This document shows positions 13,704 to 52,246 of a stretch of DNA of 52,246 bases, in pieces. The position numbers were made by a program, and so were the translations under genes. The notes under the pieces are model-generated. The model had not been told where the DNA came from and searched no databases. It worked only from the letters and a program-made list of their open reading frames with translations. The DNA comes from a virus. Location: IMG/VR virus record IMGVR_UViG_3300038428_000302; one strand, 5' to 3'. Position 1 is the stretch's first letter. Every line of letters begins with the position of its first letter.

Positions 13704-14813
13704 TTATTCGGCAATAACGAATTTGCCGCCTTTGAGTTTATACCAAGTGTCAGCTTTGATTTTCTTGCCGTCAACTTTGACTGTTTTGGCGCAAAGCACG
13801 TTGTAATTATCGTCAATCTCCGATAACACAAGCCAGTTGCCAAGTGTGCTTTTGGCTTTTGAGTTTCTGCCGATAGCACAGGCGATGGAGTTTTCGCCGC
13901 TTGTCGCCGAGGGCGAACAGTCGCCGCTTGTCGCCGAGGGCGAATAGTTGCCGCTTGTCGCCGAGGGCGAAGAGTTGCCGCTTGTCGCCGAGTGCGAATA
14001 GTTGCCGCTTGTCGCCGAGTGCGAATAGTAGCCGCTTGTCGCCGAGGGCGAATAGTTGCCGCTTGTCGCCGAGGGCGAAGAGGTGCCGCTTGTCGCCGAG
14101 TGCGAACAGTCGCCGCTTGTCGCCGAGTGCGAACAGTTGCCGCTTGTCGCCGAGTGCGAAGAGTTGCCGCTTGTCGCCGAGTGCGAACAGTTGCCGCTTG
14201 TCGCCGAGTGCGACCAGTCGCCGCTTGTCGCCGAGTGCGAACAGTCGCCGCTTGTCGCCGAGTGCGAACAGTTGCCGCTTGTCGCCGAGGGCGAATAGTT
14301 GCCGCTTGTCGCCGAGGGCGAAGAGTTGCCGCTTGTCGCCGAGTGCGAATAGTTGCCGCTTGTCGCCGAGTGCGAACAGTTGCCGCTTGTCGCCGAGGGC
14401 GAATAGTCGCCGCTTGTCGCCGAGTGCGAACAGTTGCCGCTTGTCGCCGAGGGCGAATAGTCGCCGCTTGTCGCCTTTTTACTTTTACACGCCGAAATCA
14501 AAAACGAGACACCAGCTTGAATAAGCGCGCTCAATGTTATTTTCGCGCCGATTTTTATTTCGGCGCAAACGCGCTTGGTATCGTTTGATTTTTCGCCCGA
14601 TACTTTATCGGCCTTGACTTCGGCAAAGTTTGACTCCGTTGGCGAATAGTATCGAAGCACATCAAGCGGATTTTCGCAGAAATGAAAACCCGACTCACAA
14701 AGTTTAATCTCGCCTTTGTGCGTGTATGTTTTTCCGGCCTCGAACTTGTGACCGTGACAGGTCATGTCGGCATTGAATCCCTTGAATCCTTTTATTTGCG
14801 CTGTTGTTTTCAT
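13704..14813 (-). CDS. Repeat protein (369 aa): conserved N- and C-terminal domains flanking about 22 nonapeptide repeats S-A-T-S-G-x-x-S-(H/P)
   Basis: N-terminus KGFKGFNADMTCHGHKFEAGKTYTH..CESGFHFCENPLDVLRYY and C-terminus ..KVDGKKIKADTWYKLKGGKFV resemble a phage/prophage family of unknown function that carries short Gly/Ser/Ala repeats. This assignment is from memory and has not been searched. Confidence 0.75.
   Translation of the reverse strand: MKTTAQIKGFKGFNADMTCHGHKFEAGKTYTHKGEIKLCESGFHFCENPLDVLRYYSPTESNFAEVKADKVSGEKSNDTKRVCAEIKIGAKITLSALIQAGVSFLISACKSKKATSGDYSPSATSGNCSHSATSGDYSPSATSGNCSHSATSGNYSHSATSGNSSPSATSGNYSPSATSGNCSHSATSGDCSHSATSGDWSHSATSGNCSHSATSGNSSHSATSGNCSHSATSGDCSHSATSGTSSPSATSGNYSPSATSGYYSHSATSGNYSHSATSGNSSPSATSGNYSPSATSGDCSPSATSGENSIACAIGRNSKAKSTLGNWLVLSEIDDNYNVLCAKTVKVDGKKIKADTWYKLKGGKFVIAE
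13896..14475 (-). repeat. 27-nt tandem repeat, about 21.5 copies (unit gccgcttgtcgccgagKgcgaaNagYN)
   Basis: Read directly. In frame in ORF 13704..14813. Variation is confined to a few positions per unit. All three plus-strand frames are also open, as a by-product of the repeat. Confidence 0.95.
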
Positions 14814-20678: not shown

Positions 20679-20873
20679 TCATGGTAATTTACTACTGACT
20701 CTTACTGTGTGATGAATCCGCAATTTTCTCAAATTTTCTTTAATGCGAAATTTATCCGCTACCAGCTCACATTCCTTTTCTGAATCGGGATTGCAATTTT
20801 CCTTAACAGCGTCATCCACCATTTGTTTCTGGCGTATTTCGGACAATTTGTGCGCTGTGTATTCAACACTCAT
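20679..20873 (-). CDS. Hypothetical protein (64 aa)
   Basis: Last ORF of the terminase-portal operon. ATGA overlap with 20870..21292. Confidence 0.5.
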   Translation of the reverse strand: MSVEYTAHKLSEIRQKQMVDDAVKENCNPDSEKECELVADKFRIKENLRKLRIHHTVRVSSKLP

Positions 20874-21292
20874 TCTTTAATTGAATTTGATATTCCCATT
20901 ACACGATTGCATTCTTCATCGTATTTTCTCCATGATGCCAAAGTGCCGTGAATCACAATCCGCTCCCACCACGAACCCATCACATGACCTATCCGATATG
21001 GTGCTGCGGAGTCGAATCCCGGCTCACTATGCGGGTCGCGTGCGCCGAGCAGAAATTCTTTTTCACACCGAAGATCGAAGGCATCGCACTCCTTGGTCGT
21101 GATGGCGAACAGCCAGCAATAAAGGGATTCAATCAATTCATGGCCAATGACCGCTAGTGAATATTGCCATTTGGGAAGTTTCGCCACCACCAAATGTAAT
21201 GTACCCTTATTGTGCGGCGCATCGAATCGCCATGTGCCGACAGTCACCCATCCATTCGGTGCGCCATCAGTTCTTTCTATCTTAATTTTCAT
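20870..21292 (-). CDS. Hypothetical protein (140 aa) coupled to the ATP-grasp gene
   Basis: ATGA overlaps on both sides. Contains GHELIES, which is not a canonical HExxH. Function unknown. Confidence 0.55.
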   Translation of the reverse strand: MKIKIERTDGAPNGWVTVGTWRFDAPHNKGTLHLVVAKLPKWQYSLAVIGHELIESLYCWLFAITTKECDAFDLRCEKEFLLGARDPHSEPGFDSAAPYRIGHVMGSWWERIVIHGTLASWRKYDEECNRVMGISNSIKE

Positions 21293-22671
21293 AGCAAGTC
21301 GGAGTTGATGAGGAAATCGTAGCGGTTCAAAATTGATGTAAAATAAGCGCGGGAAAGAAAATCGAATTTTGGGCGGTAATAAACTCCCGTCATTACAAAT
21401 CCGTCAATGGCATCATATACTTTCCGCACACAGTCATCAATGGTGTTTCCTGCTCCGGTAGCACATCCCAAATCTTTATCATAGCCCACACTGACAAATC
21501 TTTTCTTTTCTTCGGATTCGCCCTCCATTTTTTTAATACAGTAGAAAAAAAGTCGTTCCGATACTTCATTTAACCAGTCCATCGTATATTCTCCCTCATA
21601 CATGTCAGGTTCTTTGCCGTTGGGTTCAGTTTGAAACATGCGAACTGCCGATCCGAACTTCCATTTAAGAGGATTTTTACCTTCCGCAATCAGGTCAAAA
21701 TGGTTGACAACAGATAATCTTCCATTTTTATCTCCGCACATGGCAATTTCCGCGAACATGCCATCAAATCCCCAACGGTTGGCACAAAATTCCGTGAAGT
21801 AAAAATCATTCCCATCAAAAAGAAGTCCAGCATCAAAGATTGAGATACCGGGCTGTTTTTTTGCCATTTCGTAGATAATTGGCGGAAAGGCAATCTTATT
21901 AAGTTCGCAATCCAGTCGGGTTTGAATAGTTAAATCCTGACAACCTCCGGTAAGTCGTCCGATGTTTCCAGAACCTAATGGCTTGTTTTCAATTTCGACC
22001 ACACTAAAAAGCGGGACACCGTCCCAAAATACCATCACTGGAGTCAACTCGACCGGCTTTTTTATTTTTTCCTCCAGTGTGAATCCTCCGCGCTCATATT
22101 CTGCGGCCTCAGTGGTTAATGCTCCCGAAAGTTGCCTCCGAGCCAGTTCCGGATCGGGAGTATCTGGGACGACTGTTTCCGCATTGCTTCCCTCACTTTT
22201 AAGCACAAAGATTTTGTCTGGGTTTTCCTCTAAAAAAGCCAGTGCGTCCTCGACTTTTTGAAATTCAGAAACCTCGGCAACCTTCAATTCAGGATAGTAT
22301 TTTTTAGCAAAATCCTTGCCCGCCTGCCGGTCTTTTTCAAGCGTGTATCCTTCCTCGGTTGGGAAAACGCCTTTCGTAAAACCCATGTCCAGAGCTTTCT
22401 GTGAATACTCCCATAAATCTCCATAATCAAACATCACGAACCATTCATCTTTATTCTCAATGGTGGCCATCCACTCAATCACATCGTCGGCGGATTGCTT
22501 TTCAAAAATCCCATCATAGAGAGAAAGGCGGCTTTCGCTCTTTCCTTTTGGCGTCTTTGGGTTTTCTTCATCTTTAACCATTCCCACCACAACCCTCTTG
22601 CCATCATCCATCAATCTGTCGGCGATTGGCAGCGGGTGAAAATCTCTTGTGATAAAAATATAATTATTCAT
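21289..22671 (-). CDS. ATP-grasp ligase, PurD (glycinamide ribonucleotide synthetase)-like (460 aa)
   Basis: Collinear resemblance to PurD: LEKDRQAGKDFAKKY...VEDALAFLEENPDKIFVLKSEG, TLEEKIKKPVELTPVMVFWDG, ENKPLGSGNIGRLTGGCQ (compare QDHKR..D.GPNTGGMG), IFDAGLLFDGNDFYFTEFCANRWG (compare FLYAGLM....KVIEFNCRFG). Confidence 0.7.
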   Translation of the reverse strand: MNNYIFITRDFHPLPIADRLMDDGKRVVVGMVKDEENPKTPKGKSESRLSLYDGIFEKQSADDVIEWMATIENKDEWFVMFDYGDLWEYSQKALDMGFTKGVFPTEEGYTLEKDRQAGKDFAKKYYPELKVAEVSEFQKVEDALAFLEENPDKIFVLKSEGSNAETVVPDTPDPELARRQLSGALTTEAAEYERGGFTLEEKIKKPVELTPVMVFWDGVPLFSVVEIENKPLGSGNIGRLTGGCQDLTIQTRLDCELNKIAFPPIIYEMAKKQPGISIFDAGLLFDGNDFYFTEFCANRWGFDGMFAEIAMCGDKNGRLSVVNHFDLIAEGKNPLKWKFGSAVRMFQTEPNGKEPDMYEGEYTMDWLNEVSERLFFYCIKKMEGESEEKKRFVSVGYDKDLGCATGAGNTIDDCVRKVYDAIDGFVMTGVYYRPKFDFLSRAYFTSILNRYDFLINSDLL

Positions 22672-23348
22672 CGGAGTAATTTCAATGCCTTGTTCATCAC
22701 GGCTTGGCCAGCATCTATCAATGGGATTTTTGTGTGCTTGGAGTTAATGACTAGAGGCAACTCGGTGCATCCTACAATCACCATCCGCGCGCCGCGCTGT
22801 TTCAGGTTGATAAGCACGTTACGCACTACATGGAAATCACCCTTTGTCTGCGTGCCAGAGATAACGGCTTTGATGGCCAAATCCAGAAAGAACTGTTCCT
22901 CATCGTTGGTCAGCACATAGTTGATGCCGCGATCTCCCAAGGCGTCTTGATAGAGACAGGATTTTCGAGTTGATGCCGACGAGATGATTCCAACTCGTTG
23001 GACGCCCTTAGGAACTGCATCACAGGCCTCATCAATTATATTCAACAGTGTGCCGGGGAAATACGATGCGAGGTCTTTGAAAGCATAAGCTGAGTTGCAG
23101 GCGATCACTGCGTAATGGCAATTCCATTTTCCCAGCTTGATGAGAGTTTCGACCAGTTGACGCTTGACATGAGAGTGGTCAATAATTCCCTTTTCGTCCA
23201 TACCCACGACGGGTAGGTTATAAAGTAGGAAACTTGGGAAGTCAGAATCAAGTTTGGCTCCGTCATCCTTGGATTTCTGCAATAGATAATCGGCCATTCG
23301 GAGTCCCGCGAAGGCTCCCATGCCGGAGATTATTCCCAGTGTTTTCAT
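22668..23348 (-). CDS. Asp/Glu/hydantoin racemase-family protein, aspartate-racemase-like (226 aa)
   Basis: MKTLGIISGMGAFAG (N-terminal GxxGGMG-type), first catalytic Cys motif VIACNSAY, second catalytic Cys motif IVGCTELPLV. Length and order match aspartate racemases. Confidence 0.8.
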   Translation of the reverse strand: MKTLGIISGMGAFAGLRMADYLLQKSKDDGAKLDSDFPSFLLYNLPVVGMDEKGIIDHSHVKRQLVETLIKLGKWNCHYAVIACNSAYAFKDLASYFPGTLLNIIDEACDAVPKGVQRVGIISSASTRKSCLYQDALGDRGINYVLTNDEEQFFLDLAIKAVISGTQTKGDFHVVRNVLINLKQRGARMVIVGCTELPLVINSKHTKIPLIDAGQAVMNKALKLLR

Positions 23349-25603
23349 TTATCCGATCCATTGGAAAGTTTTGCATAAGCACTGCGACTGTTTTTTAATC
23401 CACCTCGCAAAATCTCCGCAACGGCCTTTGCGTTCTGCCGTTTTTGATCGGCAACGAATGACGTGTCTTTGTGCCTTCGCTTTTGGATGTCGGCAAGCTC
23501 TTTGGACTTCAACTTCTGTTGTGTCTCAGCCTGTTTCCCGGCCAGCTTGACCTTTGTTTCGGCCATTTGCTGTTGCAACTCGCCATTGCCATTTTGCTGC
23601 TGCTTTTTCTGCACCTCCATTTGAAGGTGTTGCTGCAACTTTTTGATTTCGTTGTTGACTTGGCTCAATGCCTTCGCAAATTCCTTCATTTTCGGCTCGT
23701 TACCAACGTCACCTTGCATTCCTTGAATCAGTTTGCCGATGAACGCGGATACATTTTGTAGGCCGATGAGTTCCATCGGTGTTGCCATCTTGGTCGTGGA
23801 CTCAATTTTGACGATGTAACGGGTAGCCAATTCGAGCAGCTTTTGAATCTGTTCGATGGGGTTCAATCCTTCGGGGATGGACGGGGGCATACCGAGCATC
23901 ATCAGCGGGAAGTTAGCGGCGGCAGCGGCGGAGGCATCGGAAATGACTTTCTTGCTGGCTTGCACCCACCGTTTTGCGCGACGCGAACCGACCATTTGAA
24001 CTGCTGCGTCGTGCAACGCCTCGGCCTGGGCGGACGGGTCGAGCATGGGACGTAACTTCATTGCGTTCTCCGCCTCCACCATTGCCATTGTGGGGTTGCC
24101 ACCACCGAGCGGCTGTGTGATTTCCACGCGCCACTTTTTTACATCAATCCATTCCTCTGCTATGCCCTGCTTTTTGCAAGCCTTTTGGAAAGCCATCACG
24201 TCCTCGTCATCGGACTTTTTTAGACAGAACCGGCGACAGATTTCTTTCGCGGCAGATTTCTCGTAGATACGCGCTACCAACATTAGTCCTGACAGCATGG
24301 CATTTGTCTGCTGGACTTTCACGCCCGTCTCGAATGCGGTTTGTTCTTTCTTCGTGCCGGTGTCAATGTTTTGGGTGTAGGCCGTGGATGCTTCCTGCTG
24401 TAATTGCTTGCCCATTGCCAATGCCATTTCAGCGAGACCGGAATCAATCTGGTGACGTTCGGCGGCGGGCACAATGGACACTCCCGGCTTGATTACGCCG
24501 AGATTTTGGAACACTTGAATCTGGGCGCGTGCGCGATCAACAGGGTCGGCAATACGAAGCAAAATGTTGAACTGGTCGAGTATGTGTTTGAGCAGCCGGT
24601 TACGGGTAAAATCCGTCCAGTAACACGGTTCAAACAGGGCGAATCCGAGCGAGCGGACGGAGTGATACAAAAACGGTGCTTTGTTATTCAAGTCACCAAA
24701 CTGAACGTGCAAAATATGACGCCAACTTGGTGCAATCGCTCCCTCATGTTCACAGATAAATTTGTCATCAGCCTCGGCGGTAACACCTGACGTGTTGTTT
24801 TCAGGGACGACCTTCAGATGCCAACTACCGTCATCGTCCTCGTGGTAAAAATGCCAAAGATTGATTGTCGGCATGGCGTCCCCAGACCAGTAACCGGCAT
24901 TTTGCTTCCGCAATTCCTCAAACTTCTCCGGCACGGTGTTCCAGTCGTAGTTATTTTCGGCCATCGTGGTATTGCACTCTTTGACATTCTCCAAAATGGC
25001 CGAGACAGCTTTCTTGTTCCACTTGAATTTGCTTTTGACTTTGGAAAACGCCTTACGCGATAGTTCGCCCGGCGTGTAGGGTATGCGAACGGCAAACCAA
25101 GTGAGGTTGCGGAATGAAAGTTCGGTGTCGGTGGGAACTCGCAAGTCCTCAATGGCAACGTATCGCGGAAGCCAGTTGTAAGTGTCCTCCCACATTATAG
25201 GGCCTATGCCGTGACTGACGACCCCCGACCATTTGGAGCGATGCACTTCAAAGTATTCCAATTCATGCTCGCCCTCCTTCATCACGTCATTGATGAATTC
25301 GGTGATGAAATCGCCCCAATCAGATCGCACTTCTTCCGGTGCTTTGGGGACGGACACGGTAAAATAATTGTCTTGTGAACAGAAGTTTGTGATGTATTGT
25401 CGGCGTGCATGGGAGAGCGCACCCATGAACTCGCCCCACCGGATATTTATTTCCATGCCGACCCGCTTGGCCTCATCTTCATCTAAAAGAGGTTCGTTAT
25501 TGGCAGCACGGTTGATAAGGACTCTGTTACGACCGCGTTTCAACTCGGCGTCATCGCCGCTCCTAATCGTTTCTAAAACTTTTTCTGGCGTGCTGAAATT
25601 CAT
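23345..25603 (-). CDS. Putative portal protein (752 aa)
   Basis: Start set at the ATG at 25603 (ATGA overlap with the HNH stop). The size, the position downstream of terminase and HNH, and the long charged helical C-terminal tail fit podovirus-type portals. No explicit motif, so the call rests on context. Confidence 0.55.
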   Translation of the reverse strand: MNFSTPEKVLETIRSGDDAELKRGRNRVLINRAANNEPLLDEDEAKRVGMEINIRWGEFMGALSHARRQYITNFCSQDNYFTVSVPKAPEEVRSDWGDFITEFINDVMKEGEHELEYFEVHRSKWSGVVSHGIGPIMWEDTYNWLPRYVAIEDLRVPTDTELSFRNLTWFAVRIPYTPGELSRKAFSKVKSKFKWNKKAVSAILENVKECNTTMAENNYDWNTVPEKFEELRKQNAGYWSGDAMPTINLWHFYHEDDDGSWHLKVVPENNTSGVTAEADDKFICEHEGAIAPSWRHILHVQFGDLNNKAPFLYHSVRSLGFALFEPCYWTDFTRNRLLKHILDQFNILLRIADPVDRARAQIQVFQNLGVIKPGVSIVPAAERHQIDSGLAEMALAMGKQLQQEASTAYTQNIDTGTKKEQTAFETGVKVQQTNAMLSGLMLVARIYEKSAAKEICRRFCLKKSDDEDVMAFQKACKKQGIAEEWIDVKKWRVEITQPLGGGNPTMAMVEAENAMKLRPMLDPSAQAEALHDAAVQMVGSRRAKRWVQASKKVISDASAAAAANFPLMMLGMPPSIPEGLNPIEQIQKLLELATRYIVKIESTTKMATPMELIGLQNVSAFIGKLIQGMQGDVGNEPKMKEFAKALSQVNNEIKKLQQHLQMEVQKKQQQNGNGELQQQMAETKVKLAGKQAETQQKLKSKELADIQKRRHKDTSFVADQKRQNAKAVAEILRGGLKNSRSAYAKLSNGSDK

Positions 25604-26346
25604 AGTGCCAATACTTGTTGCCCAAGCCTCATCCAATCCTGAATCAGCTTGTCGTGTTTATGTTGATTGCAACTAGGGCAACTCGCACAAAGATTTGTTA
25701 CACTGTGTGCGCCGCCTTTGCTCAATGGAACAATATGGTCTATGTGAGCAGTTTTGCCAGCGGTTTTATTTTTACAATAGTAGCAGGCAACTTGTTTTGT
25801 TGCTCGAATCCCCCTTACAAATTTATTTATCGCAACAGGGTTTATTGTGTTACCGAGTTTGAAAGCGCGACGTTTTTGAGTTCCGCTGGCAGCATAAATG
25901 CGTATCTTGTGCCTGTTTTTCAAAGCCCAACGCTTCGATTTCTCTCGCACTTTTTCTGGATTATTTTTATGCCACGCTTTTGATTGCTCTGCAATTCTCT
26001 TTTTGACTTCTGGCCTTTGGTAGTAAGCTCGTCTTTTGGGGCGAAGTCTTTCTCGGTCACGTTCTCTGTGGCGATAATAATACCTCAACTTCGTTGCCTT
26101 CACCTTTTCGGGATTTTTTTTCCTCCAAATCTTTGACCGTTCCGACCAAATCTTCTTCTTTTCTGGATGCCGCGCTTTCCACGCCTTGTTAAGTTCCGCC
26201 ATTTTTTCACGGTTATTGTTACGCCAAATCTTCCCCGTGCTTAAAACGTGATCTTTGTTTTTTAGATAGTAGTTTTTGTTGTGTGCGCGTATCTTCTCTT
26301 TGTTTCGCTGCCTATACAATTTCCAGTATTCGGCGGTCTGGGGCAT
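25600..26346 (-). CDS. HNH endonuclease (248 aa) with N-terminal basic repeats
   Basis: C-terminus CYYCKNKTAGKTAHIDHIVPLSKGGAHSVTNLCASCPSCNQHK (HNH with Cys4 zinc sites). The N-terminus carries repeated W-x-KKNPEKV-like units. Start taken at MPQTAEYW, 5 nt after the upstream stop. Confidence 0.85.
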   Translation of the reverse strand: MPQTAEYWKLYRQRNKEKIRAHNKNYYLKNKDHVLSTGKIWRNNNREKMAELNKAWKARHPEKKKIWSERSKIWRKKNPEKVKATKLRYYYRHRERDRERLRPKRRAYYQRPEVKKRIAEQSKAWHKNNPEKVREKSKRWALKNRHKIRIYAASGTQKRRAFKLGNTINPVAINKFVRGIRATKQVACYYCKNKTAGKTAHIDHIVPLSKGGAHSVTNLCASCPSCNQHKHDKLIQDWMRLGQQVLAL

Positions 26347-26351
26347 AAAAT

Positions 26352-26675
26352 TTAATCTGTTTTTACAGGCGTTCCGCAGCCTGCACAATTTTGTTTAATG
26401 AAGTGGTGATTTTGGTGGACGCGATCAAAAGGTTCAGAGCAATTCCAGCAGAATCGTTCGTCATTTTGTCGAACGGCGCAGTTAAAGCGGTCAACGTCTT
26501 CGAGGCACTCACACAGACTGGAACGGGGAAGATTGTTGGCGATTCGAAATGAACTGACAGCCTTAACGACTTCTTCGATGATTGGGTTTGCTCCGAAACG
26601 GTGACGGACGCCTTCAGTCTGTTCATAAACATAATTGTTCGGCAGAGGATTGTTATAGGATTTTAAGATATACAC
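26352..26675 (-). CDS. Cys-rich hypothetical protein (107 aa)
   Basis: ORF between the terminase and HNH genes. CxC, CWNC and CAGC motifs. Confidence 0.55.
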   Translation of the reverse strand: MYILKSYNNPLPNNYVYEQTEGVRHRFGANPIIEEVVKAVSSFRIANNLPRSSLCECLEDVDRFNCAVRQNDERFCWNCSEPFDRVHQNHHFIKQNCAGCGTPVKTD

Positions 26676-26746: not shown

Positions 26747-29584
26747 TCAATGTTTCAAAAGTCCGGCCTTGATAGCGTTATTCCATTCTTCCGATTCTTT
26801 TGTAAAATAATCTTCCTCGTTGGCTGTGGATTTCACGTTCCGGCCAATGCGCTGAATCTGGAAGCCAAGTTGCCTAGCACCTTCAAGGGCTACGCAACAC
26901 CAGTCCATCAGGTCGGGAGATTTCTTTAACCGGTCCTTCATGTCCTCTTTTGGTTCGACTTCGATTTTGTTTCCGGCAACAGTTTTGAACAATCTGCACT
27001 GGCCTTCTTGGGCGACTTCCATCGGCAAAGACCGCACTTGATCTGACTCAATGGCTTCTCGCATCGAATACCACAATTCGGTTACGAACTTTTGGTATTG
27101 TTCATCGCACCGTTTCAGCCGTTTTCCATTCTTTCCATCGTCCACAAATAAATCGAATCGCACCGGCCTGTCAGTTGGGCGCGCGCCGGAGTCCACAGGA
27201 ATTGGGCAGTTAAAACCGAACTGCTTTGCGAAGGACGATCCGAGTGTGCCGCGCCCAAATGAATCGTAGAAAATGTTTTTTGGTGGAATACCGAGCCGGT
27301 CGGATTGCTGTTTGATGAACTCCGCTATTTGTCCTTCGGCATCGAGCGATGAGTTCAGTCGGATTGGAATTATTTCCGGTGTGCCTACCGAGAAAATAAT
27401 GTTGCCGTCCTTGTCCTCACCATATTCGCACTCGCCACCAACGCAACGGTCGCCACCGCCATACGCCGGGTCTAAAGCGTAGAGTTTCGTTCGCGGCGTT
27501 CCCTTCCAGACAACAGAATCAAATGCGTGATGCTGTTCGCAAAGACCGATGGTGATGACGCGATTTGAAACCATCCCCTTTGACGGTTTGCCGATGCCCT
27601 GCTGATAAAGCTGCCATGAATCGTCGCCATAAGTTTTTCGCAGCCCTTCGATAAACGGTTTTGAAATCAGGAAATGATATTTTGTTTCCGACTGGTCATT
27701 GTTTGGGGTGTCCCTGCCATCGAACGCAACGACATGGGCATCATGCCAACGCGAAGTCCACTCTTGAGTTTTACCATTGTCAATGAATGAGTCCCAACCG
27801 CCAATCGGTTCGGCGGCGGTGCAAAGGGGGTCGGAGATGTCAGTCGGGTTGCCAGATTGGACGCCCTTGAAATTATCATCCACAGTCCAGTTTGTGTATG
27901 CGTCGAGATAGCTGGTTTCCATAACAGCGGATTCATCTCCGTAATGAGTCAACAGTCCATCGTGCTTTCCGGGCGAGCTAGGGGCTTTAACACCCTGATA
28001 TTTTCCCATGCCAACGAAGCGGCCGCCTGAAATACAAGGAACGCAAGCTATGCCGCGAGAGAGCAGTCGAGCGAATTGGCCTTCATCGTCAATTTTGTCC
28101 GGGACAATCGCCCTTGCGGATTCGAGCAGGTAGCCGTCCAGCCAGCCGTAGCGCTCCCGCGCACGATTGAAAAGCCACTTGATTCCCCTTCCCCAGATTT
28201 TCTGGTCAAGACTCCGCATATCCGTCGAGGAAACCAGCGCAAACGATGTGAATGGGAAAGCCCAAAAAGTTATCAGGCAATGAGCGGCCATCAGATAAGT
28301 TTTTCCCGAATTGTGATGGATTGCTCCCTCCGCAAAATAATGATGCACGTTTGGAACACACAAATCATAGAATGTTTCTTTGTGGGATTTAGTTATTGAC
28401 ACCACCCGCGATTGTGATACCTTGAAACGATATGACTCATTATTACAAACGGAACGCGAAAAGGGATTCTCGAATTTTGTCTCTTTTTCTTCATCTGAAC
28501 AGAGATTTGGTTGTGACCGCTCGACTGTCAAACATGAAGATTGCAGCGACTCGGAATGTTTTAAAGGCTGCTGGTGAGAAATTCCCGAAAACAAAACTTC
28601 ATCCAAATAGTGCGTGCCATAAAAATCAGAAGTTGGTTTTTGAAATGGAACAGTCCGGTTCAAGTTTGGATGAAATTGGTCGTCGGATTGGAACTGGGGG
28701 GCGTCATGTAAAAAGGTTTTTGCGCGAGCATGGCGTGACGCGAGATTTTTTGACGAGCAAAAAGGCTGAACGCCACTACGCTTGGAAGGGAGGTAGAATA
28801 ATCGACAAGGACGGTTATGCGACGGTGTATTGTCCTGATCATCCCCACCGCCGGAAGCATACGCCTTATATTTTAGAGCATCGTCTTGTGATGGAAAAGA
28901 TGATTGGCCGTTTTTTGCTGCCGGAAGAAGTCGTTCATCATCGGGACAAGAACAAGCAGAATAATTCTCCTGAAAACTTGCAACTTTTTTCAGAGAATCG
29001 GGAACATTTAGCACAAGAGTTAAAGGGTTGTGTTCCGAATTGGAGTCCTGAAGGTTTTGCTCGTATGAAAGAATCAGGGAACCGAACCGGAGATTTGAGA
29101 CGTGGCAAAAGTCCCCATTTGTGGCTAAGACGCGGTGAGATGCAGTCGCCTTGAATCGTTGTCCGTTTTCCAAAACGACTTCGTATAAATCTTCTTCACC
29201 TTTAATGAAGGGGATGCCCGCTTGTGCTGCTCCCGCTAGTGTCAGCACCGTTGGAGCGATTTGTTTTTCGTAAAGTTCTCGTATTGTCGGTTGTTCTCCG
29301 GTTAGAGGATTCAAAATTCGGGTGTCACCCGAAACACAACTGGCCGATCCAAGAAATACACTCACCTTATTTTCAACGATGGCTTTCATTCCTTGCACGA
29401 ACCAGCGATGTTGGTCATCTTCCGGCCAGAGCAATTTGTGGGCATTAAGATAATGCTGAAGCCGGTTTGTCCCGTGATATTTTAGGGATGCATCAGATTG
29501 AGCTAAAACAGAAAGCTCAATGGCAAGCGGGTCAAGGTTGTTGTCCAAATCAAATCCGTATTTGAGCATGAGCCAACAATACAT
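26747..29584 (-). CDS. terL: Terminase large subunit precursor (945 aa) containing a 343-aa intein in the Walker A loop
   Basis: Removing residues 83-425 joins ..VSVFLGSAS to SGKTYLMAAH.., giving the Walker A GSASSGKT. Downstream are YGDESAVME (Walker B/coupling-like) and a nuclease-type LDPAYGGGDRCV. The extein is 602 aa. Confidence 0.85.
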   Translation of the reverse strand: MYCWLMLKYGFDLDNNLDPLAIELSVLAQSDASLKYHGTNRLQHYLNAHKLLWPEDDQHRWFVQGMKAIVENKVSVFLGSASCVSGDTRILNPLTGEQPTIRELYEKQIAPTVLTLAGAAQAGIPFIKGEEDLYEVVLENGQRFKATASHRVLATNGDFCHVSNLRFGSLILSYEQNLQDSNSEHNPLTLVLNVPDSLKKVASFQENYSACSCPDDERLLPAAKNGQSSFPSQDDALKYKAYASGGGDDQDNTPSHNRPCRLFYLPSKRSGVQPFCSSKNLASRHARAKTFLHDAPQFQSDDQFHPNLNRTVPFQKPTSDFYGTHYLDEVLFSGISHQQPLKHSESLQSSCLTVERSQPNLCSDEEKETKFENPFSRSVCNNESYRFKVSQSRVVSITKSHKETFYDLCVPNVHHYFAEGAIHHNSGKTYLMAAHCLITFWAFPFTSFALVSSTDMRSLDQKIWGRGIKWLFNRARERYGWLDGYLLESARAIVPDKIDDEGQFARLLSRGIACVPCISGGRFVGMGKYQGVKAPSSPGKHDGLLTHYGDESAVMETSYLDAYTNWTVDDNFKGVQSGNPTDISDPLCTAAEPIGGWDSFIDNGKTQEWTSRWHDAHVVAFDGRDTPNNDQSETKYHFLISKPFIEGLRKTYGDDSWQLYQQGIGKPSKGMVSNRVITIGLCEQHHAFDSVVWKGTPRTKLYALDPAYGGGDRCVGGECEYGEDKDGNIIFSVGTPEIIPIRLNSSLDAEGQIAEFIKQQSDRLGIPPKNIFYDSFGRGTLGSSFAKQFGFNCPIPVDSGARPTDRPVRFDLFVDDGKNGKRLKRCDEQYQKFVTELWYSMREAIESDQVRSLPMEVAQEGQCRLFKTVAGNKIEVEPKEDMKDRLKKSPDLMDWCCVALEGARQLGFQIQRIGRNVKSTANEEDYFTKESEEWNNAIKAGLLKH
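28396..28423 (+). promoter_or_regulatory. Possible extended -10 promoter TTGACA-N16-(TGa)TACCTT upstream of the antisense HNH gene
   Basis: Read directly on the plus strand. The -10 ends 8 nt before the ATG at 28432. It is embedded in terminase coding sequence, so chance occurrence cannot be excluded. Confidence 0.3.
28432..29154 (+). CDS. HNH (HNH_3-type) homing endonuclease with N-terminal HTH, encoded antisense inside the terminase intein (240 aa; may start at 28534)
   Basis: HTH-like SLDEIGRRIGTGGRHVKRFLREHGV. HNH_3 core DGYATVYCPDHPHRRKHTPYILEHRLVMEKMIGRFLLPEEVVHHRDKNKQNNSPENLQLFSENREH. Confidence 0.8.
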   Translation: MTHYYKRNAKRDSRILSLFLHLNRDLVVTARLSNMKIAATRNVLKAAGEKFPKTKLHPNSACHKNQKLVFEMEQSGSSLDEIGRRIGTGGRHVKRFLREHGVTRDFLTSKKAERHYAWKGGRIIDKDGYATVYCPDHPHRRKHTPYILEHRLVMEKMIGRFLLPEEVVHHRDKNKQNNSPENLQLFSENREHLAQELKGCVPNWSPEGFARMKESGNRTGDLRRGKSPHLWLRRGEMQSP

Positions 29585-32600: not shown

Positions 32601-32875
32601 CGCCGACCGTCGCCACGCCGACGCCCGCCAACAACGCGGGGACATATTTCGATTACACAAACAGGGCGTTGTATTTCTGGAATCCGGCGGGTTATTGGGG
32701 TAGCGATACAACCGCAATCGGCAGCGGTGTGATTGCAACTTCGCTCGGTTCGGACTACATTTCGGGGCATGGAGTTCCGCTAACACAGAAACCGGCGAAT
32801 GGGGCTGGCATTTATTACGACTTGGACACCCTGACGGTGTATAACTGGAATCCCATCACACAAACTTGGCTATGA
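29624..32875 (+). CDS. Large virion structural protein (1083 aa), possibly a tail tubular/nozzle-type protein, with three C-terminal YWD..Y.WN..W repeats
   Basis: The ATG at 29624 is preferred (the track uses the TTG at 29621). The N-terminus GGIDGGVDPHLLKKDKLAWAVNSTVRGGFIGPMPK resembles N-termini of podovirus tail-tube proteins (weak, from memory). First gene of the structural block. Confidence 0.45.
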   Translation: MARGATKSVFLKDFLGNFLGGIDGGVDPHLLKKDKLAWAVNSTVRGGFIGPMPKILSYNFSDGGIPVIGGSAAVSYFVQNGVFQGATPQAYQPHASSILPGPTFFALISGRLFGFTPDFSVSIAGAYVASPGMIAVVEYTPTVSGSSPVQADLNSATAPQAWLDQAENYLIVQDGTTPNPLVFDGNKSFRSYSLQQVVGTFSNGTALVAPVSGGVIVATVTTDITTIDPKFFNIPVALYAPSGGIAVGISPVTPAYAGGQYIGQMALTIVPPMTGGALLSSAATGTVKTGDTIFLQNSNYPISNPTINIGGSYPIAYSPNPTVNTADANNAQNTTGFVSGSLVAVATVAQWAAVVGSPYGSPLQPTGQTAQVTSNSITPSMIAAGSFTIPLPSDPYGSNSQITAITLQYQTQATVPVVSYAPIGTIGGTGLTYSFPNTALAVVLSGGASYPTTSTQGATVFVGSNTTIPAANLQCTIDSPSTATTYYLTNNSVVAGIVLQNVVVQTVIGIPCGKAWTYCQGRIWTSLPNGTQFVAGDAVGSSSGTAANGFLDAILYTMQNTLLSNGGTFSIPGNYGTIRALVVAPTMNVQLGQGPLQVFTTQSVFSVSAPADMTTWPSLTTPIVTVSLIGAGGLSQWSTIPVNGDILFRAPDGIRSMTIASLDFYKWNSTPCSQEVHLALDSDNPSLINFCSAIQFDNRVIFGCSPVSGINGAYFQNAAVMNLDAVSNLQNKSPAVWEGEWTGLNTLQWMTGIFGNKVRCFSFTSNGTTIGFSELLMTADGQDITGTTTTTWQFESSVLFGRNESAGEYDLLRLEDGEVYVQNIIGQVGFMVEFRPDYDTLWHPWYSWSVDNTKGNVPYAVRMGLGNPIGGASVSGTQYRDGYDFQVRVTVVGSCNFMGLAEKASVVPQSEFARPIIPIPPTPPTPPAVLLKQMFAASGAPTTQNPGNLAGIYWDVLDEEFYLWLGTQWDTGITPTGSFVICTGRQAFAGSGAPTVATPTPANNAGTYFDYTNRALYFWNPAGYWGSDTTAIGSGVIATSLGSDYISGHGVPLTQKPANGAGIYYDLDTLTVYNWNPITQTWL

Positions 32876-34689
32876 AAAAGTTTCTCATAACGGCGGCGTT
32901 GCTGCTCGGCCTTCGGCTTGGCGCGACACAGTTTTATTACAACCCGTTCACCACGAACGACCCTTACGACGCGCTGAATCTGGCGACGAATATCGCTACG
33001 GGCGCAATTCAAGGCAGCATCACCGCATCGCTTTCACCGGGAGTCATCGAAGCCGCTGGCGGTCTGGACACGAACAACTACGCTAATTATGCGGACACCA
33101 ACGGCGCGGCGGCTTACTTATACAGTCAGGCGACGAATTACGCCGCAACCAACCTTCCGGCGAATCTTGTGACCAGTAACCAGCTTGTAGTGGCGACCAA
33201 TGCGCTCGTCACAAACGAAATCGCCGCGTTCAATACCGCAACAAACGGGCTGGTAACAGCTTCCGTGACCAATGGCCTTGCTTCAACCAACTATGTGAAC
33301 GCGGCAACAAATGGTTTTGTAACAGCGGCCATCATAAGCGGACTTGCTTCATTGACGGCGGTTACAAATGAAGCCAACGCGGTTTATTCAAACAATCCGT
33401 CCAGCTACTTGACCCCATCAGCTACAAACAACATCACGGCTTTTGGAAGCAATGTTGTCACGCAAATTCAAAACGGCCAAGGCATCGTCGTTGCATCTTA
33501 TTCGTCTGCATCGGGCATCACGGTTTCATTGACGGCGACCGGCACGAACAATGTCAATGTGACAAACTTAAATGCAACCAGTCTCGCTTCGTATGGCGCA
33601 CTGACGACTAATTCCTCGTCTTGGTCAGCTTATGTTGCTCCGATCAACGATTACACCAATGCAAAGCAATACACGAATGGCCTGTTGCCTGCCGCAACCG
33701 CAGCGGCTACTTATCAGCCAGTTGGGACTTACTTGACCTCAAGCAACAATCTCAACTACAACAATGTCACCAATCAACCGGCCATCCCCACAACGAACGG
33801 TTTTGTAACAGCGGCCATCATAAGCGGATTGGCGACGACGAACTATGTGAACGCGGCAACAAATGGTTTTGTAACAGCGGCCATCATAAGCGGATTGGCG
33901 ACGACGAACTATGTGAACGCGGCAACAAATGGTTTTGTAACAGCGGCCATCATAAGCGGATTGGCGACGACCAACTGGGTGCTTGCACAAAATTACACCA
34001 ACGCCGGTATTTTGAGCAACTACACCACACTGAACTCCCTGAGTAATTCTTTGAACTCTTTAATCACGTCAACGGGTTTGAATTCGGAAAGTAATTCGTT
34101 GCAGACGCAGATTTCATCCAACGCAACCGCCATCACCCAGACATGGCCTATCAGCCAACCGTTTGTCGGTGTTATCGCTCTTTCATCCAATATGACAGTT
34201 TCATTCGTGACCAACGCCGGGGTTATCACAGCCACCCTCGGTTCTTATGGCGGAGCAGTTACCGGCTTTCAACCAGCCAGCGCGAATCTCACGAACTGGT
34301 CTGGTGTTCCAACAAACACGATTTTGCTCACCACGAATGTTGTGACTTCGATTACACAAAACACAGGCGCAACAGTTCAAGGTAGCACAAACGCCAACGG
34401 AATAACTTACACCATCGGTTCGGGTGTTGACCAGACTTCGGTGGCATGGCAATCAGGAACATTCATTACGCCCGCGCACGGAACTCAAATACAACAGTAT
34501 TTTTCACACGGACTGGCGTGTTCTGCTCCATCGCTCATGGTTTATTACAATGGGACAGGCTATTCAAGTGGTGGCAACATTTCTTTGGCGTTCACTTATG
34601 TTTCGTCATCTTCATGCTACTTCACCTTCACCGACAATGGGACAATACCAACAAACGTAACGGTGACGGTCATTGCCTTTTGCGAATGA
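32872..34689 (+). CDS. Tail fibre protein 1 (605 aa) with N-terminal signal-peptide-like segment
   Basis: The ATG at 32872 forms an ATGA overlap with the upstream stop. N-terminus MKKFLITAALLLGLRLGAT/Q. Repeats TNGFVTAAIISGLATTNYVNAA. Collinear paralog of 34686..37100. Confidence 0.7.
   Translation: MKKFLITAALLLGLRLGATQFYYNPFTTNDPYDALNLATNIATGAIQGSITASLSPGVIEAAGGLDTNNYANYADTNGAAAYLYSQATNYAATNLPANLVTSNQLVVATNALVTNEIAAFNTATNGLVTASVTNGLASTNYVNAATNGFVTAAIISGLASLTAVTNEANAVYSNNPSSYLTPSATNNITAFGSNVVTQIQNGQGIVVASYSSASGITVSLTATGTNNVNVTNLNATSLASYGALTTNSSSWSAYVAPINDYTNAKQYTNGLLPAATAAATYQPVGTYLTSSNNLNYNNVTNQPAIPTTNGFVTAAIISGLATTNYVNAATNGFVTAAIISGLATTNYVNAATNGFVTAAIISGLATTNWVLAQNYTNAGILSNYTTLNSLSNSLNSLITSTGLNSESNSLQTQISSNATAITQTWPISQPFVGVIALSSNMTVSFVTNAGVITATLGSYGGAVTGFQPASANLTNWSGVPTNTILLTTNVVTSITQNTGATVQGSTNANGITYTIGSGVDQTSVAWQSGTFITPAHGTQIQQYFSHGLACSAPSLMVYYNGTGYSSGGNISLAFTYVSSSSCYFTFTDNGTIPTNVTVTVIAFCE
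33799..33970 (+). repeat. 66-nt tandem repeat, about 2.6 copies (22-aa unit), plus a diverged copy near 33290-33350
   Basis: Unit boundaries at 33799, 33865 and 33931, read directly. In frame. Confidence 0.9.
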
Positions 34690-37100
34690 AAAACATAGCC
34701 CAAATTTGTCTTACCATTTTTTGTCTAGCCATCTTTTGTCCAAAGGCTTTGGCGCAGACGCCCATTGGCATCAAGCAAAATACATTCACGACCAACAAAG
34801 ACCCTTCGTTTGCCATCACTGGGGCGGCAAATGGTGTTTTGCAGCAGCAACAAGGACAAGGACAGCAATACTATGTTGTGTCAGGTGCGGGTGAATCATT
34901 GGCAAATGGGAATTATTATTTACAGTCCACTAATCCTCTTGTTTATACCAATCAGTATTACGAAATTCAAGAAACAGTGCCGTTTGAAAACGTCATACCT
35001 GCGGGGTCTTATTATTCTGTCCGCCAGTTTTACTTAGGTCAATTTTTACAAGTCAACACGACCTACACAATTACCTTCGGAACAAACGACGATTGCCTTC
35101 TTGGTTACGGTTTATGCGCCCCCGGAACATTCCAATTCGTTACAGGCGGAGACGCTTCTGTCCTTCCCTCTGTAGAGCTTCAACCCGTTACTAGCTTTTC
35201 TCTTGTTACCGCAATAGTTTATACTACATCAAGGAGTTATGCTATCAGAGGACGTGCAACTACCCGCGTAGAAATATATGTTTCTACCAACATGATAAAC
35301 TGGCAAACACTTCACGTTGCAGCCCCGCCAGCCCCAACCGTCACACTTGCTAATTCCGCTGCGGCCTCATACATCACCGAATCTCTGTTGCAAAATGCTG
35401 GCGGGTTGACCATCAGCAATTTCTCTCAATACGCGGACACCAACGGCGAAGCCTCCAATGTTTTCCAGACACTACCCCCGCCGTCGAACACCAACTTGGC
35501 CACACAGACTCAGTTGCTTTTGTCGTCAAATGGGGTTGCTTCACAAACAACAAGCCTTGTTGCGTCAGCGTCGAGCTTTGTTGGCGGCACGATCACCAAC
35601 GGGCTTGCCTCAACTCAATACGTCATCACGGCTACGAATGGAATGGTGAAAGCCGCAGTCACAAACGGCCTTGCGACTGGGGTTGCCATGACAAACATTG
35701 TCAACAACAGCTACTCAAATAATCCATCAAAATATATCACATCATCCGCCGTCAGTAACATGACCGCGCTCGGTAGCGGCGTAATCACACTCATCACCAA
35801 CGGCGGTGGTTTGTTGGTTTCGTCGAACTTGTCGGCGGGCGGTTACTCTTATTCCGTTGGCCTTGATCCTGCGGCGACCAACATCACCTACATAACCAAC
35901 CTCTATGCAATTACGCTGGCGCAATGGGGCGCGTTCACCACAAACGCAAACACATGGGCGACTTATCTGGCGGCCATCAACGATTACACCAATGCGAAAG
36001 CCTTTACCAACGGTTTGATACTATCTTCGGTTGCAGCTTCAACATATAATCTTTTGGGGAATTATTTAACTACGACCAGCAATCTGAACTATTCAAAATT
36101 CACTAATGCGCCGGTGATTCCAGCCACCAATGGTTTCGTCACATCGTCCATTACGAACGGTCTGGCGACCATTGCTTATGTGAACACGGCAACAAATGGT
36201 TTTGCTACACAGAGCATCACGAACGGATTGGCGACGACGAACTATGTGAACACTGCGACAAACGGAGCCGTCACAAGCGCGATAACAAACGGCCTTGCGA
36301 CTATTGCTTTTGTGACGAACCAGAATTATTTGCAGTCGTCCAATGTGGCGGCGTATTACGCCACAACCTCATCCGTCATATCCGCTATTGCGCCGTATGC
36401 GACCATTACCACGCTAAACGCTTCGAGCAATTATCTGACTTTGGCAAACACCACCAACGTCAACACCATCGCGCTTCATTGGGGAACGAATCAGGCACTC
36501 GTAGGAAGTGTCACCGTGAACTCGAATATGACGGCAAGTTTTGCGACGAATGGCGGGGTGATAACCGTTACGCTCGGTTCCACGACAAATCTTTACGCTT
36601 CCAGCACGGCAGGATTACAGCCCAAATCAGGAAATCTCACGAACTGGTCAACTATTTCCACAAACCAGATTCTTTTCACACCAAACTTGGTCACAACACT
36701 CGTCGCGGGAAACAATGTCGCTATTACCTACACAACCAATAGCAGCGGCGTTCACGCGACAGTCAATGCTTACTATCAATACAATTCTCCAGTTCAAGCG
36801 GTGTCGGGGTATATCGGAGGGGTTACTGGTTCTCCTTACGGCTTTGTTAGTCTTACCACAGGAAATAGTTCTTACTCTAGTCCGAGTTGGAGTGCGCTTC
36901 CAGCAACTCCGAATGATTGCAAGATTTACAACTCATCAAGCGGAGCTATTATTTATAGTAGCAGCAATGGAGTGGTACTATTGAATTCAACTGTGTTGAC
37001 AAATATAACATTTACGGCGACTGGTTGTTGGGCCACAACCATATACATAACAAACACTGTGATTTCTCAAAATGTGAACATTATCGCAATATGCCATTAG
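34686..37100 (+). CDS. Tail fibre protein 2 (804 aa) with N-terminal signal peptide
   Basis: Start at the ATG at 34686 (ATGA overlap). N-terminus MKNIAQICLTIFCLAIFCPKALA/Q. Shares ordered motifs with fibre 1 (SNNPS.Y.T, INDYTNAK.(F/Y)TNGL, LNY..(V/F)TN.P.IP.TNGFVT..I.(S/N)GLAT, C-terminal IA(I/F)C). Confidence 0.7.
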   Translation: MKNIAQICLTIFCLAIFCPKALAQTPIGIKQNTFTTNKDPSFAITGAANGVLQQQQGQGQQYYVVSGAGESLANGNYYLQSTNPLVYTNQYYEIQETVPFENVIPAGSYYSVRQFYLGQFLQVNTTYTITFGTNDDCLLGYGLCAPGTFQFVTGGDASVLPSVELQPVTSFSLVTAIVYTTSRSYAIRGRATTRVEIYVSTNMINWQTLHVAAPPAPTVTLANSAAASYITESLLQNAGGLTISNFSQYADTNGEASNVFQTLPPPSNTNLATQTQLLLSSNGVASQTTSLVASASSFVGGTITNGLASTQYVITATNGMVKAAVTNGLATGVAMTNIVNNSYSNNPSKYITSSAVSNMTALGSGVITLITNGGGLLVSSNLSAGGYSYSVGLDPAATNITYITNLYAITLAQWGAFTTNANTWATYLAAINDYTNAKAFTNGLILSSVAASTYNLLGNYLTTTSNLNYSKFTNAPVIPATNGFVTSSITNGLATIAYVNTATNGFATQSITNGLATTNYVNTATNGAVTSAITNGLATIAFVTNQNYLQSSNVAAYYATTSSVISAIAPYATITTLNASSNYLTLANTTNVNTIALHWGTNQALVGSVTVNSNMTASFATNGGVITVTLGSTTNLYASSTAGLQPKSGNLTNWSTISTNQILFTPNLVTTLVAGNNVAITYTTNSSGVHATVNAYYQYNSPVQAVSGYIGGVTGSPYGFVSLTTGNSSYSSPSWSALPATPNDCKIYNSSSGAIIYSSSNGVVLLNSTVLTNITFTATGCWATTIYITNTVISQNVNIIAICH

Positions 37101-45556: not shown

Positions 45557-46735
45557 TTATTCCGGCTGGATGGCCTTCTTCAAGCTCGTTCCCCAATCTT
45601 CATCTTCGCCTGGTGTTTCAGTTCCGCCCGGACGTTTGACCTTGCCGGGTGCTGTCCCCTTCAACTCGTCAACTTGAGCCTGCAACGCGGTGATTTTCTC
45701 CTGCGCCCTTGTCAGTTGCAGTTTTAGCACAGGAAACGCCCCAATCCGCTGCCGGATATGAGCATCACGCAGGAGTTTCTTCTGGATGAAGTCTTGCCGG
45801 TCTGCGGCATTGATTTTTGAGTCGAACACGGTCAAGGCGTGTTTCCGAGCATCGTTCAACTCGGTATCTTCCGGGTCATTCTTGTAATCCGCCACGGACT
45901 CGGCAAGCCGAGTATTGGTTTCAGTCCATGTAGATTCGACCTTCTCGCGTTCCACAGTGCGCCCGGCGATTTCCTTCTCGGTGCGTTGTTTGAACTGCTC
46001 GCGTTCTTCCTGAAGGGCAGTCTGGCGCGCGGAATCCAAGTCCAACAGCTTTTCGCGTAGCCCCAAAACGAATTGTGCCGATGTCCCAAACAGTGTGTTG
46101 GCCTGTTCAATGGCCTTACCCACCGGCAACGAATACAGCGCGGAAAAGTCCTCCCAAGTGGCAGGGCGATTTGTGCCATCCTCGGCATTTGCGACCTGCA
46201 ATTCCAAAACCTGCTTGCGCGCCCGTTCAGCAGCCGTGTTGAAAGGCTTGTCGTATTTCTCTTTGAACTCCGGGCTGGCCTCTTGCTTGGCGGCACGAAG
46301 CTCGGCATAGGCGGCATCACGCTCCTTTTCGAGCGCAGCCAGACGGCCTGTGAGGGCGGTTGTATCCTTGCCCTGTGACTCGAATTGCTTGATTTTGGCT
46401 TCAAGCTCTTTGAGCTTGCCGCCGGCGGTCTGCGATTCAGTCCGTAACTGTTTGACACGCTCGCGCAGTTCCTTCGGGGCGAGCTTATCAATGTCGTCCG
46501 GCACAACCGGAGCGGCGGGCTTCGCCGGTGCCGCGGCAGGGGCAGCGCCAGCGGGCTTGGGCGGGGGCGCAAAGGGGTCGTCACTGGCTGGTTCTGGGGC
46601 AGCAGCGGGTGCGACGGCTGCTGGTGCCGGTGACGGACTTGGCGCGGCAGCGGGTGCAGTGGCGGGTTTGGCTGGTGCAGGTGTTCCACCACCACCAGCG
46701 GGAGCGACGGGATCAAGAAGGATTCGGTTAATCAT
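45557..46735 (-). CDS. Scaffold-like protein (392 aa): Ala/Pro-rich N-terminus plus long coiled coil
   Basis: PAPAKPATAPAAAPSPSPAPAAV.. followed by helical E/K/R/Q/L-rich sequence. Composition and size fit scaffolding proteins. This is an inference only. Confidence 0.4.
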   Translation of the reverse strand: MINRILLDPVAPAGGGGTPAPAKPATAPAAAPSPSPAPAAVAPAAAPEPASDDPFAPPPKPAGAAPAAAPAKPAAPVVPDDIDKLAPKELRERVKQLRTESQTAGGKLKELEAKIKQFESQGKDTTALTGRLAALEKERDAAYAELRAAKQEASPEFKEKYDKPFNTAAERARKQVLELQVANAEDGTNRPATWEDFSALYSLPVGKAIEQANTLFGTSAQFVLGLREKLLDLDSARQTALQEEREQFKQRTEKEIAGRTVEREKVESTWTETNTRLAESVADYKNDPEDTELNDARKHALTVFDSKINAADRQDFIQKKLLRDAHIRQRIGAFPVLKLQLTRAQEKITALQAQVDELKGTAPGKVKRPGGTETPGEDEDWGTSLKKAIQPE

Positions 46736-52210: not shown

Positions 52211-52246
52211 TTATGGCTAAAACACTTATTGCACTACCGCAAATCA
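52120..52246. repeat. Terminal redundancy, right copy (identical to 1..127)
   Basis: See the left copy. Confidence 0.95.

Follow-up and report, generated by a model that had tools for sequence, protein, structure and literature searches.

A racemase, a divergent PurD-clan ATP-grasp ligase and a small predicted metalloprotein make up one exchangeable form of a widespread and uncharacterised phage module in the packaging/head gene block

The pairing of an amide-forming ATP-grasp ligase with a source of D-amino acid has a precedent in the enterococci and lactococci, where the gene for the ATP-grasp D-aspartate ligase adjoins that for an aspartate racemase. ATP-grasp enzymes of another clade, RimK and tubulin-tyrosine ligase, ligate amino acids onto proteins, and their genes often accompany that of a peptidase which prepares the target protein or trims it. 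Phages carry ATP-grasp systems too, among them those described in papers from the Aravind laboratory (including PMC5512222), and in LUZ24-like and HMO-2011-like phages amidoligase clusters bring together an ATP-grasp protein, a COOH-NH2 ligase, an amidoligase_2 protein, a glutamine amidotransferase and GGCT (PMC3890496). Here we describe a cassette that is different from these, on the minus strand of a 52,246-nucleotide (nt) viral sequence, IMG/VR record IMGVR_UViG_3300038428_000302 (this whole stretch is called the window, and coordinates given without a locus name refer to it). Directly downstream of a portal candidate (23345..25603), it comprises R, a predicted amino-acid racemase of the two-cysteine type that is independent of pyridoxal phosphate (226 residues, 22668..23348); G, a divergent PurD-clan ATP-grasp protein, predicted to be a carboxylate-amine ligase (460 residues, 21289..22671); and S, a small predicted metalloprotein (140 residues, 20870..21292). 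An earlier, sequence-only reading of this DNA had singled out R and G as an aspartate/glutamate racemase and ligase pair chained to the portal gene, and had not recognised it as a described phage system; the literature that we searched contains no paper joining ATP-grasp, racemase, phage and portal.

The resemblance to each of the described systems is partial. With the Enterococcus/Lactococcus pair the cassette has in common an ATP-grasp amide ligase gene adjoining a PF01177 racemase gene, and thus potentially the same order of events, in which a D-amino acid is made and then ligated to an amine. On the other hand, homology between G and the D-aspartate ligase went undetected in NCBIfam, where purD was the only model returned (a comparison with family models), R is without the basic residues of the Asp type, and the cassette is phage-encoded, portal-linked, known from a Gram-negative host and equipped with the extra partner S. 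RimK and tubulin-tyrosine ligase offer a possible analogy for G acting with S, but these enzymes activate a carboxylate of the protein, whereas a PurD-like enzyme activates the free amino acid. The LUZ24-like and HMO-2011-like clusters are, like this one, uncharacterised phage ATP-grasp ligase cassettes (PMC3890496), but they lie in the early/replication region, feature an ATP-grasp protein of ~290 residues and of another type, and have other partners; none of their families was seen in the window in Pfam and PHROG scans. What is new here, within ATP-grasp amide-ligase cassettes, is the ligase subfamily (G) and the partner family (S).

The relationship of G to PurD is best seen in its predicted structure. 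The AlphaFold model of G (predicted local distance difference test, pLDDT, 94.3; predicted template-modelling score 0.92) finds PurD in 15 of its top 15 Foldseek matches in the PDB, at E 3e-23 to 1e-19 and 15–18% identity, over 453–472 aligned columns and with template-modelling scores of 0.59–0.71, biotin carboxylases coming next; the description of the ligase as collinear with PurD is borne out over the full length of the fold. With a profile of 63 G homologues, the A and C domains of PurD structures (2XCL) are matched at E 1.6e-11. The motifs that G has in common with PurD are a glycine-rich loop (K-x-x-G-x-G-N-x-G…GG), the Lys and Glu residues that bind ATP, R299 as the catalytic Arg, and a C-terminal R-x-x-D. 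Twelve charged or polar active-site positions (R48, E112, R115, K158, E200, E208, E228, D280, E294, R299, R433 and R450) are invariant across the 63 sequences, which span 40–80% identity. The charged residues with which PurD binds ATP and glycine have been listed, the glycine site consisting of Asp212, Arg287 and Glu292 (PMC8880213). Combining that list with an hhalign alignment to E. coli PurD places the invariant residues E112, R115 (Lys in PurD), K158, E200, E208, E228 (Asp in PurD), K230 and R299 of G on ATP-, Mg- or glycine-binding residues, and R115, K158, E200, E208, K230 and E294 are conserved among the ATP-grasp nucleotide/metal positions. At the glycine site, G retains R299 and, with Glu for Asp, E228; the equivalent of Glu292 is Gly304.

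That G might nonetheless be a bona fide PurD orthologue had been allowed for in the sequence-only reading, and this was tested against the PurD set (TIGR00877; PF02844, PF01071 and PF02843). G scores 20.7 with TIGR00877, for which the cut-off is 288, and 18.9 bits with GARS_A (PF01071), for which it is 27, and GARS_N is undetected in G. Where the N-terminal region of E. coli PurD has GNGGREHALA, G has ITRDFHPLPIA and the G family has the consensus FFTxExYPLPxA; missing is G-G-R-E-H-A, which we take to be a signature of the PurD N domain. The phosphoribosylamine site of PurD has itself not been structurally defined (PMC8880213). There is no purine-pathway context either, the conserved neighbours of G being only R and S and its flanks terminase and portal-type genes. 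To judge by its sequence and its model, G is a PurD-derived ATP-grasp enzyme and not a PurD orthologue.

R exceeds the cut-offs of both PF01177 (82.7 bits against 31; E 4e-23) and TIGR00035 (94.2 against 93.1), and its best named model, the cysteate racemase CuyB, is matched at 112 bits, under the cut-off of 190. It aligns end to end with the P. horikoshii aspartate racemase (PhAspR; 1JFL) at E 7.7e-20. The motifs ACNSAY and GCTE, which had been read as the two catalytic cysteine motifs, do fall on Cys82 and Cys194 of that structure, and the equivalents of both cysteines are kept in 15 of 15 distinct cassette racemases. The specificity for Asp or Glu that was read along with them is not established. 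Arg48 and Lys164 of PhAspR, presumably the basic residues that bind the substrate side chain, have unconserved counterparts in the same 15 sequences, Asp or variable in the first case and Ser or variable in the second. R's subfamily also contains the broad-specificity racemases RacX and YgeA (PMC12838360). R is, on its sequence, a credible, genuine two-cysteine racemase of PF01177, to which we assign no substrate.

S had been taken along as a bystander in the gene chain; it is instead the most constant partner of G. In relatives whose ligases are 82%, 63% and 43% identical to G it is retained on the 3' side, and a Paraburkholderia silviterrae prophage is among the relatives with S downstream of the ligase. 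S has no match in Pfam, PHROG, NCBIfam or the PDB, but its own profile retrieved 247 homologues and later 1,781 clusters at 50% identity (from 1.84 billion representatives). Phage and cellular members alike have the invariant residues G19, H51-E52-x-x-E55, D70-x-F72-D73, D94, Y99, H103 and E110-R111. In the AlphaFold2 model of S (pLDDT 94.4), three strands are followed by four helices, the first of which carries HExxE and the third H103 and E110. This topology agrees with the zincin core fold described in PMC5512222, and the zincin domains of phage polyvalent and packaged proteins likewise feature a three-stranded sheet, a helix with H-E-x-x-(H), downstream acidic or His ligands and a location near portal genes (PMC5512222). 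S differs from these in that it is a stand-alone protein of 125–170 residues with HExxE and no N-terminal helix, and in that its structural matches are non-significant: Foldseek of the model found nothing in the PDB, and in BFVD it found weak matches (E 0.03–0.4), recurrently to SprT-like, IrrE, M48 and “PolyVal metallopeptidase” proteins. On motif and model, S is probably a small, zincin-like metallohydrolase, an assignment we make with low-to-moderate confidence.

The longer members of the S family are fusions to HNH/NUMOD3 homing endonucleases or to zinc ribbons. Such fusions were considered as Rosetta-stone clues and dropped as uninformative on function. In locus L007 (11386–13489), and also in L024, a GIY-YIG/NUMOD3 gene separates G from S and a duplicated N-terminal fragment of S is present. 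The S gene looks like a target of homing endonucleases.

Across the neighbourhoods of 45 fetched loci only three families are common: G, S and R. R and G occur together in 15 distinct loci of several phage lineages, the Paraburkholderia prophage included, with a 4-nt overlap of R and G in 10 of the 15 and of G and S in 7. The racemase-ligase pair of the sequence-only reading is thus real and recurrently coupled, but it is not the core unit, since many ligase loci are without R. R is limited to one clade of the ligase, clade A, which is made up of phage loci and short contigs of metagenome-assembled genomes, in which R, G and S are present and mostly in this order. Clade B, without R, includes phage loci with an M23 peptidase or Amidase_2 gene after G, and also contigs that are genuinely cellular and bear the label Levyibacteriota or Saccharimonadales; two loci whose gene layout matches these cellular contigs (L015 and L016) are labelled Gammaproteobacteria. 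The sole identified host of the trio is Paraburkholderia, a Gram-negative, whose prophage occupies about 59–81 kb of NZ_SMRP01000001.1 and has R-G-S at L005 9354–11805. In that prophage, an Acyl_transf_3 protein (L005, 18352–19458) of a kind typical of O-antigen conversion genes adjoins a pectate-lyase-type tailspike.

S also reaches beyond G. Its lower-scoring homologues are located upstream of ligases of other types, here called G' and G''. Locus L045 has, in order, an SLT gene, an 86-residue gene, S, G' (420 residues, PurD-like; E 2.9e-21 to PurD in the PDB) and an SU10 adaptor gene, with a capsid gene upstream. In L044, S and then a G'' of 430 residues come after a homologue of the portal candidate seen in the window; this G'' is only marginally related to G and to PurD/PurK (hhalign E 0.0017 at 15% probability) and matches only PurK and PurD in the PDB, at E about 0.1. 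A search of 50,697 phage records for G, G' and S found none, except for one spring metagenome contig with a relative of G'; the module is absent from isolated phages and confined to uncultured phages and some bacteria of the Candidate Phyla Radiation (CPR).

The exchange of these versions is seen in 26 loci fetched through the portal candidate, at 70–92% identity to it. Neither R nor G is found in any of them (0 of 26). Sixteen have the portal candidate, S and G'', with or without a 65-residue gene after the first. In four more, of which L066 is the type, the portal candidate is followed by a 138-residue SET-domain protein, a 64-residue gene and G'', SET standing in place of S, and one has a 193-residue protein together with G''. 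The SET assignment is based on a PDB match to vSET (E 0.0013), the remaining matches also being SET lysine methyltransferases, and on a BLAST match (E 4e-7) to the Pfam-supported SET protein of the cellular locus L019. In L061 (4496–5560) the slot after the portal candidate is filled by a 354-residue Rossmann-type protein (GADGLCG; AGMNPGNV) and there is no ligase cassette. The 65-residue gene, which in relatives follows the portal candidate and precedes S (L047, 4920–5117), is homologous to a 64-residue backbone gene of the window (20679..20873) that ends the gene chain on the far side of the cassette and is missing 3' of S in L001–L003; R-G-S and S-G'' therefore reached the slot separately. 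It is safe to conclude that R, G and S form a genuine and conserved operon, that G does not serve purine synthesis, and that the constant core is a PurD-clan ligase plus S, with R, SET or others as lineage-specific additions. R-G-S is thus one of the versions of this widespread module that close relatives swap.

The placement of these genes in the morphogenesis operon, asserted for the window in the sequence-only reading, holds there and in relatives as well, the cassette lying inside a block of packaging and head genes. Homologues of the portal candidate stand directly 5' of S/ligase cassettes (68 fetched loci). A scan with G'' gave 35 distinct ligases, 33 with enough upstream sequence; in 31 of the 33 a same-strand open reading frame (ORF) of at least 600 residues, mostly 650–777, precedes G'', S lies between that ORF and G'' in 21, and S and the ligase overlap by 4 nt in 13. 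About a third of these upstream ORFs have no detectable homology to the window's portal candidate, so that the linkage to the head block is not a matter of vertical inheritance alone. In blocks of the L072 type, the portal candidate, S, the ligase and two small genes are followed by a ~420-residue protein homologous to the window's ORF 45557..46735. The portal candidate itself (752 or 763 residues, depending on the start) is without a match in Pfam, PHROGs, phmmer against the PDB or tblastn against the 50,697 phage records, as is a distant relative put through the same searches, and the ~420-residue putative capsid gene of the relatives is without a match too. That the module belongs to the packaging/head gene block is a safe conclusion.

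From these components a reaction sequence may be proposed. R, whose family and two cysteines are in place, would turn a free L-amino acid into its D-form. G, which has the fold and most of the ATP- and carboxylate-binding residues, would bind ATP and phosphorylate the carboxylate of the amino acid, just as PurD phosphorylates glycine, to give an acyl-phosphate. The acyl group would pass to a primary amine on an acceptor other than phosphoribosylamine. S, as a zincin-like metallohydrolase, would prepare or trim the acceptor or the product, which is the weakest step of the scheme.

For the acceptor, we slightly favour a protein lysine tied to head assembly over a cell-wall precursor. At a probability of somewhat under 0.4, we propose a lysine-type amine on a protein that is present while heads assemble, whether it is part of the virion or packaged with it, or on a host protein that such a factor acts upon. 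A protein or head-associated target is favoured by the synteny with the head module, by the zincin-like partner, by the SET partner in two independent contexts and by the GNAT/SET context of L019, a cellular Saccharimonadales locus in which a SET-domain gene lies directly 3' of G. The coupling of R, G and S across lineages and the pairing of S with G' and G'' also back this proposal. A more specific version, which we consider doubtful, is that the module attaches a free (here D-) amino acid to lysines of virion or co-packaged proteins, or forms isopeptide bonds on such lysines, with S as a new mini-metalloprotease, or in some phages SET, acting on the same target, or else that the enzymes are packaged and ejected so as to modify host proteins on entry. 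If true, this would be the first enzymatic D-aminoacylation, or the first ATP-driven cross-linking, of a phage particle protein.

Several observations weigh against a head-associated protein as the acceptor. To our knowledge, PurD-clan enzymes act on small molecules and not on proteins, and a racemase suggests D-amino-acid chemistry, which is typical of cell walls. In the E-x-N metal motif of G the Asn is replaced by Cys or Ala in 62 of the 63 family members, and catalysis may consequently be atypical. The motif of S is HExxE, not HExxH, with structural matches that fall short of significance, and the SET association is known from two contexts only. The label “portal”, likely as it is, was given by size and by position downstream of an intein-containing terminase-like gene and is that of a candidate only, and in the window's lineage the cassette lies at the operon's end, where accessory genes typically sit. 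Cellular contexts of G feature a divergent S, with adjoining genes for RNase HII and UppS or for a polysaccharide deacetylase, and three cellular CPR-type contigs (L013, 9944–12805; L017, 8580–11386; L018, 9995–12785) have two tandem G paralogues and no S, either within a Bac_transf/GT4/PMT_2 cluster or in divergent orientation to murE-murC-murA. The acceptor proposed here is a candidate only, advanced with modest confidence.

These cellular contexts lead to the best placed of the alternatives, which we regard as possible, if unlikely. Here G would place a (D-)amino acid on the side-chain amine at position 3 of lipid II or a UDP-MurNAc-peptide; alternatively, its acceptor would be an amino sugar in a surface glycan. 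Cross-linking or the surface chemotype would thereby change late in infection, and S, as a peptidase or deacetylase, would uncover the amine. An envelope precursor is favoured by the racemase, by the D-aspartate ligase precedent, by the natural acceptor of PurD, which is the amine of a sugar phosphate, and by the CPR neighbourhoods, where MurA, MurC and MurE beside the cellular G all exceed their NCBIfam cut-offs. Against this reading stands a rough estimate by which such envelope contexts, in genomes as small as those of CPR bacteria, attain no more than p of about 0.05–0.1. An M23 peptidase, Amidase_2, SLT or lysozyme gene is also near some of the phage loci, but peptidoglycan hydrolases within 3 kb were found (by jackhmmer) in ~8 of 26 phage loci, near a back-of-envelope estimate of chance, and this adjacency is therefore down-weighted and not counted as evidence for a wall target. 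The cassette is linked consistently to the portal/head block and not to lysis genes, and partners of the SET-domain and zincin types would be unexpected for a wall precursor. The analogy with the Gram-positive D-Asp cross-bridge, put forward in the sequence-only reading, is only one of several readings; the sole known host is Gram-negative, with peptidoglycan that is cross-linked directly and has no bridge.

Less likely again is a small-molecule product, a free dipeptide or aminoacyl-amine, which might be an aminoacyl-polyamine that condenses DNA at packaging, an antimetabolite or a signal mimic; S could then be the amidase that goes with it, on the model of glutathionylspermidine synthetase/amidase. 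The restriction of every characterised PurD-clan enzyme, so far as we know, to small molecules speaks for it, and a cassette in an operon with the terminase and portal candidate would be timed to DNA packaging. The Rossmann-type protein that occupies the slot in L061, possibly a polyamine-type enzyme, would fit; it has no PDB match. Transporter, polyamine or other pathway genes are not conserved nearby, the SET partner is left unexplained, and the proposal is purely inferential.

We think it quite improbable that G is not a ligase at all but an ATP-grasp fold turned to another use, for example in assembly, in nucleotide binding or in a different phosphotransfer reaction, with R a separate accessory gene. 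The loss of the E-x-N Asn, together with variation (M, Q or N) of the residue two positions past it, would fit such a co-option, as would a G'' that is barely recognisable as ATP-grasp. The twelve invariant active-site positions tell against it, as does the tight translational coupling of G to the racemase, which argues for a free amino acid as substrate. Finally, the idea that G is a genuine PurD, an auxiliary metabolic gene (AMG) boosting host purine synthesis, as automatic annotation has it and as the name “phosphoribosylamine-glycine ligase” given to homologues in some sources would suggest, is rejected on thresholds (far below that of TIGR00877, at an identity of 15–18%), motifs (TRDFHPLP in place of GGREHA, Gly for Glu292) and context, with no pur genes among the conserved neighbours and with cellular homologues hosted by CPR bacteria, which generally are without de novo purine synthesis.

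Viral purD and racD are nevertheless listed as AMGs in virome papers (PMC12647753, PMC12796364). For genes such as those described here, automatic annotation as “purD” or “racD” AMGs is routine but almost certainly mistaken, and it leads to overstated claims of purine and D-amino-acid metabolism in viruses. The size of the S family (~1,800 clusters), its head-block site and the swapping of versions suggest an important, host- or target-specific function. Once the acceptor is identified, a new branch of ATP-grasp chemistry would be defined, and a new modification of the virion or cell envelope might come to light; the prophage of Paraburkholderia silviterrae 4M-K11 provides a culturable handle on the module.

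In the window, the operon begins with a terminase large-subunit-like gene that contains an intein (26747..29584, minus strand like all genes of the chain; 945 residues; PF14890 intein, weak TerL matches in PHROG). The corresponding gene in close relatives is intein-free and encodes 588–601 residues, and the versions of other relatives have 886–887. It is followed by a conserved 107-residue gene from the ORF list (26352..26675), which precedes the portal candidate in relatives, genes of 104–121 residues filling its position in L047–L068. Between this gene and the portal candidate lies an HNH endonuclease gene (25600..26388; PF14279 and PF01844), an insertion not present in the relatives. The portal candidate ORF runs over 23345..25636, giving 763 residues from a TTG or 752 from the ATG at 25603. 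Reading the junctions confirmed the gene coordinates and the consecutive ATGA start/stop overlaps that had been described, at all four junctions from the portal candidate through R, G and S to the 64-residue gene, and added a fifth, in which the TGA of the HNH gene overlaps the ATG of the portal candidate (…ACTATGAATT…, 25603–25600); this supports the ATG at 25603 chosen as the portal start in the sequence-only reading. ATGA overlaps are frequent in phage operons, and by themselves these are unremarkable. A component of a known anti-phage defence was considered and rejected, the PADLOC models giving zero matches for R, G, S or the neighbouring genes.

A perfect 127-nt direct repeat at the two ends of the window (1–127 and 52120–52246) points to a circularly closed assembly and a genome of ~52.1 kb. 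About 30 tandem 27-nt units at 13761–14610, with 86–94% identity in the core and ~60% at the ends, sit in a minus-strand ORF (13704–14813) that encodes a 369-residue protein of 9-residue repeats. Repeated segments of 52–135 nt (33055–36694) are common to the ORFs 32866–34689 and 34446–37100, which suggests paralogous or modular genes, perhaps fibre-like. At 47023–49353, a 776-residue protein combines an FkbM methyltransferase domain with DUF6492.

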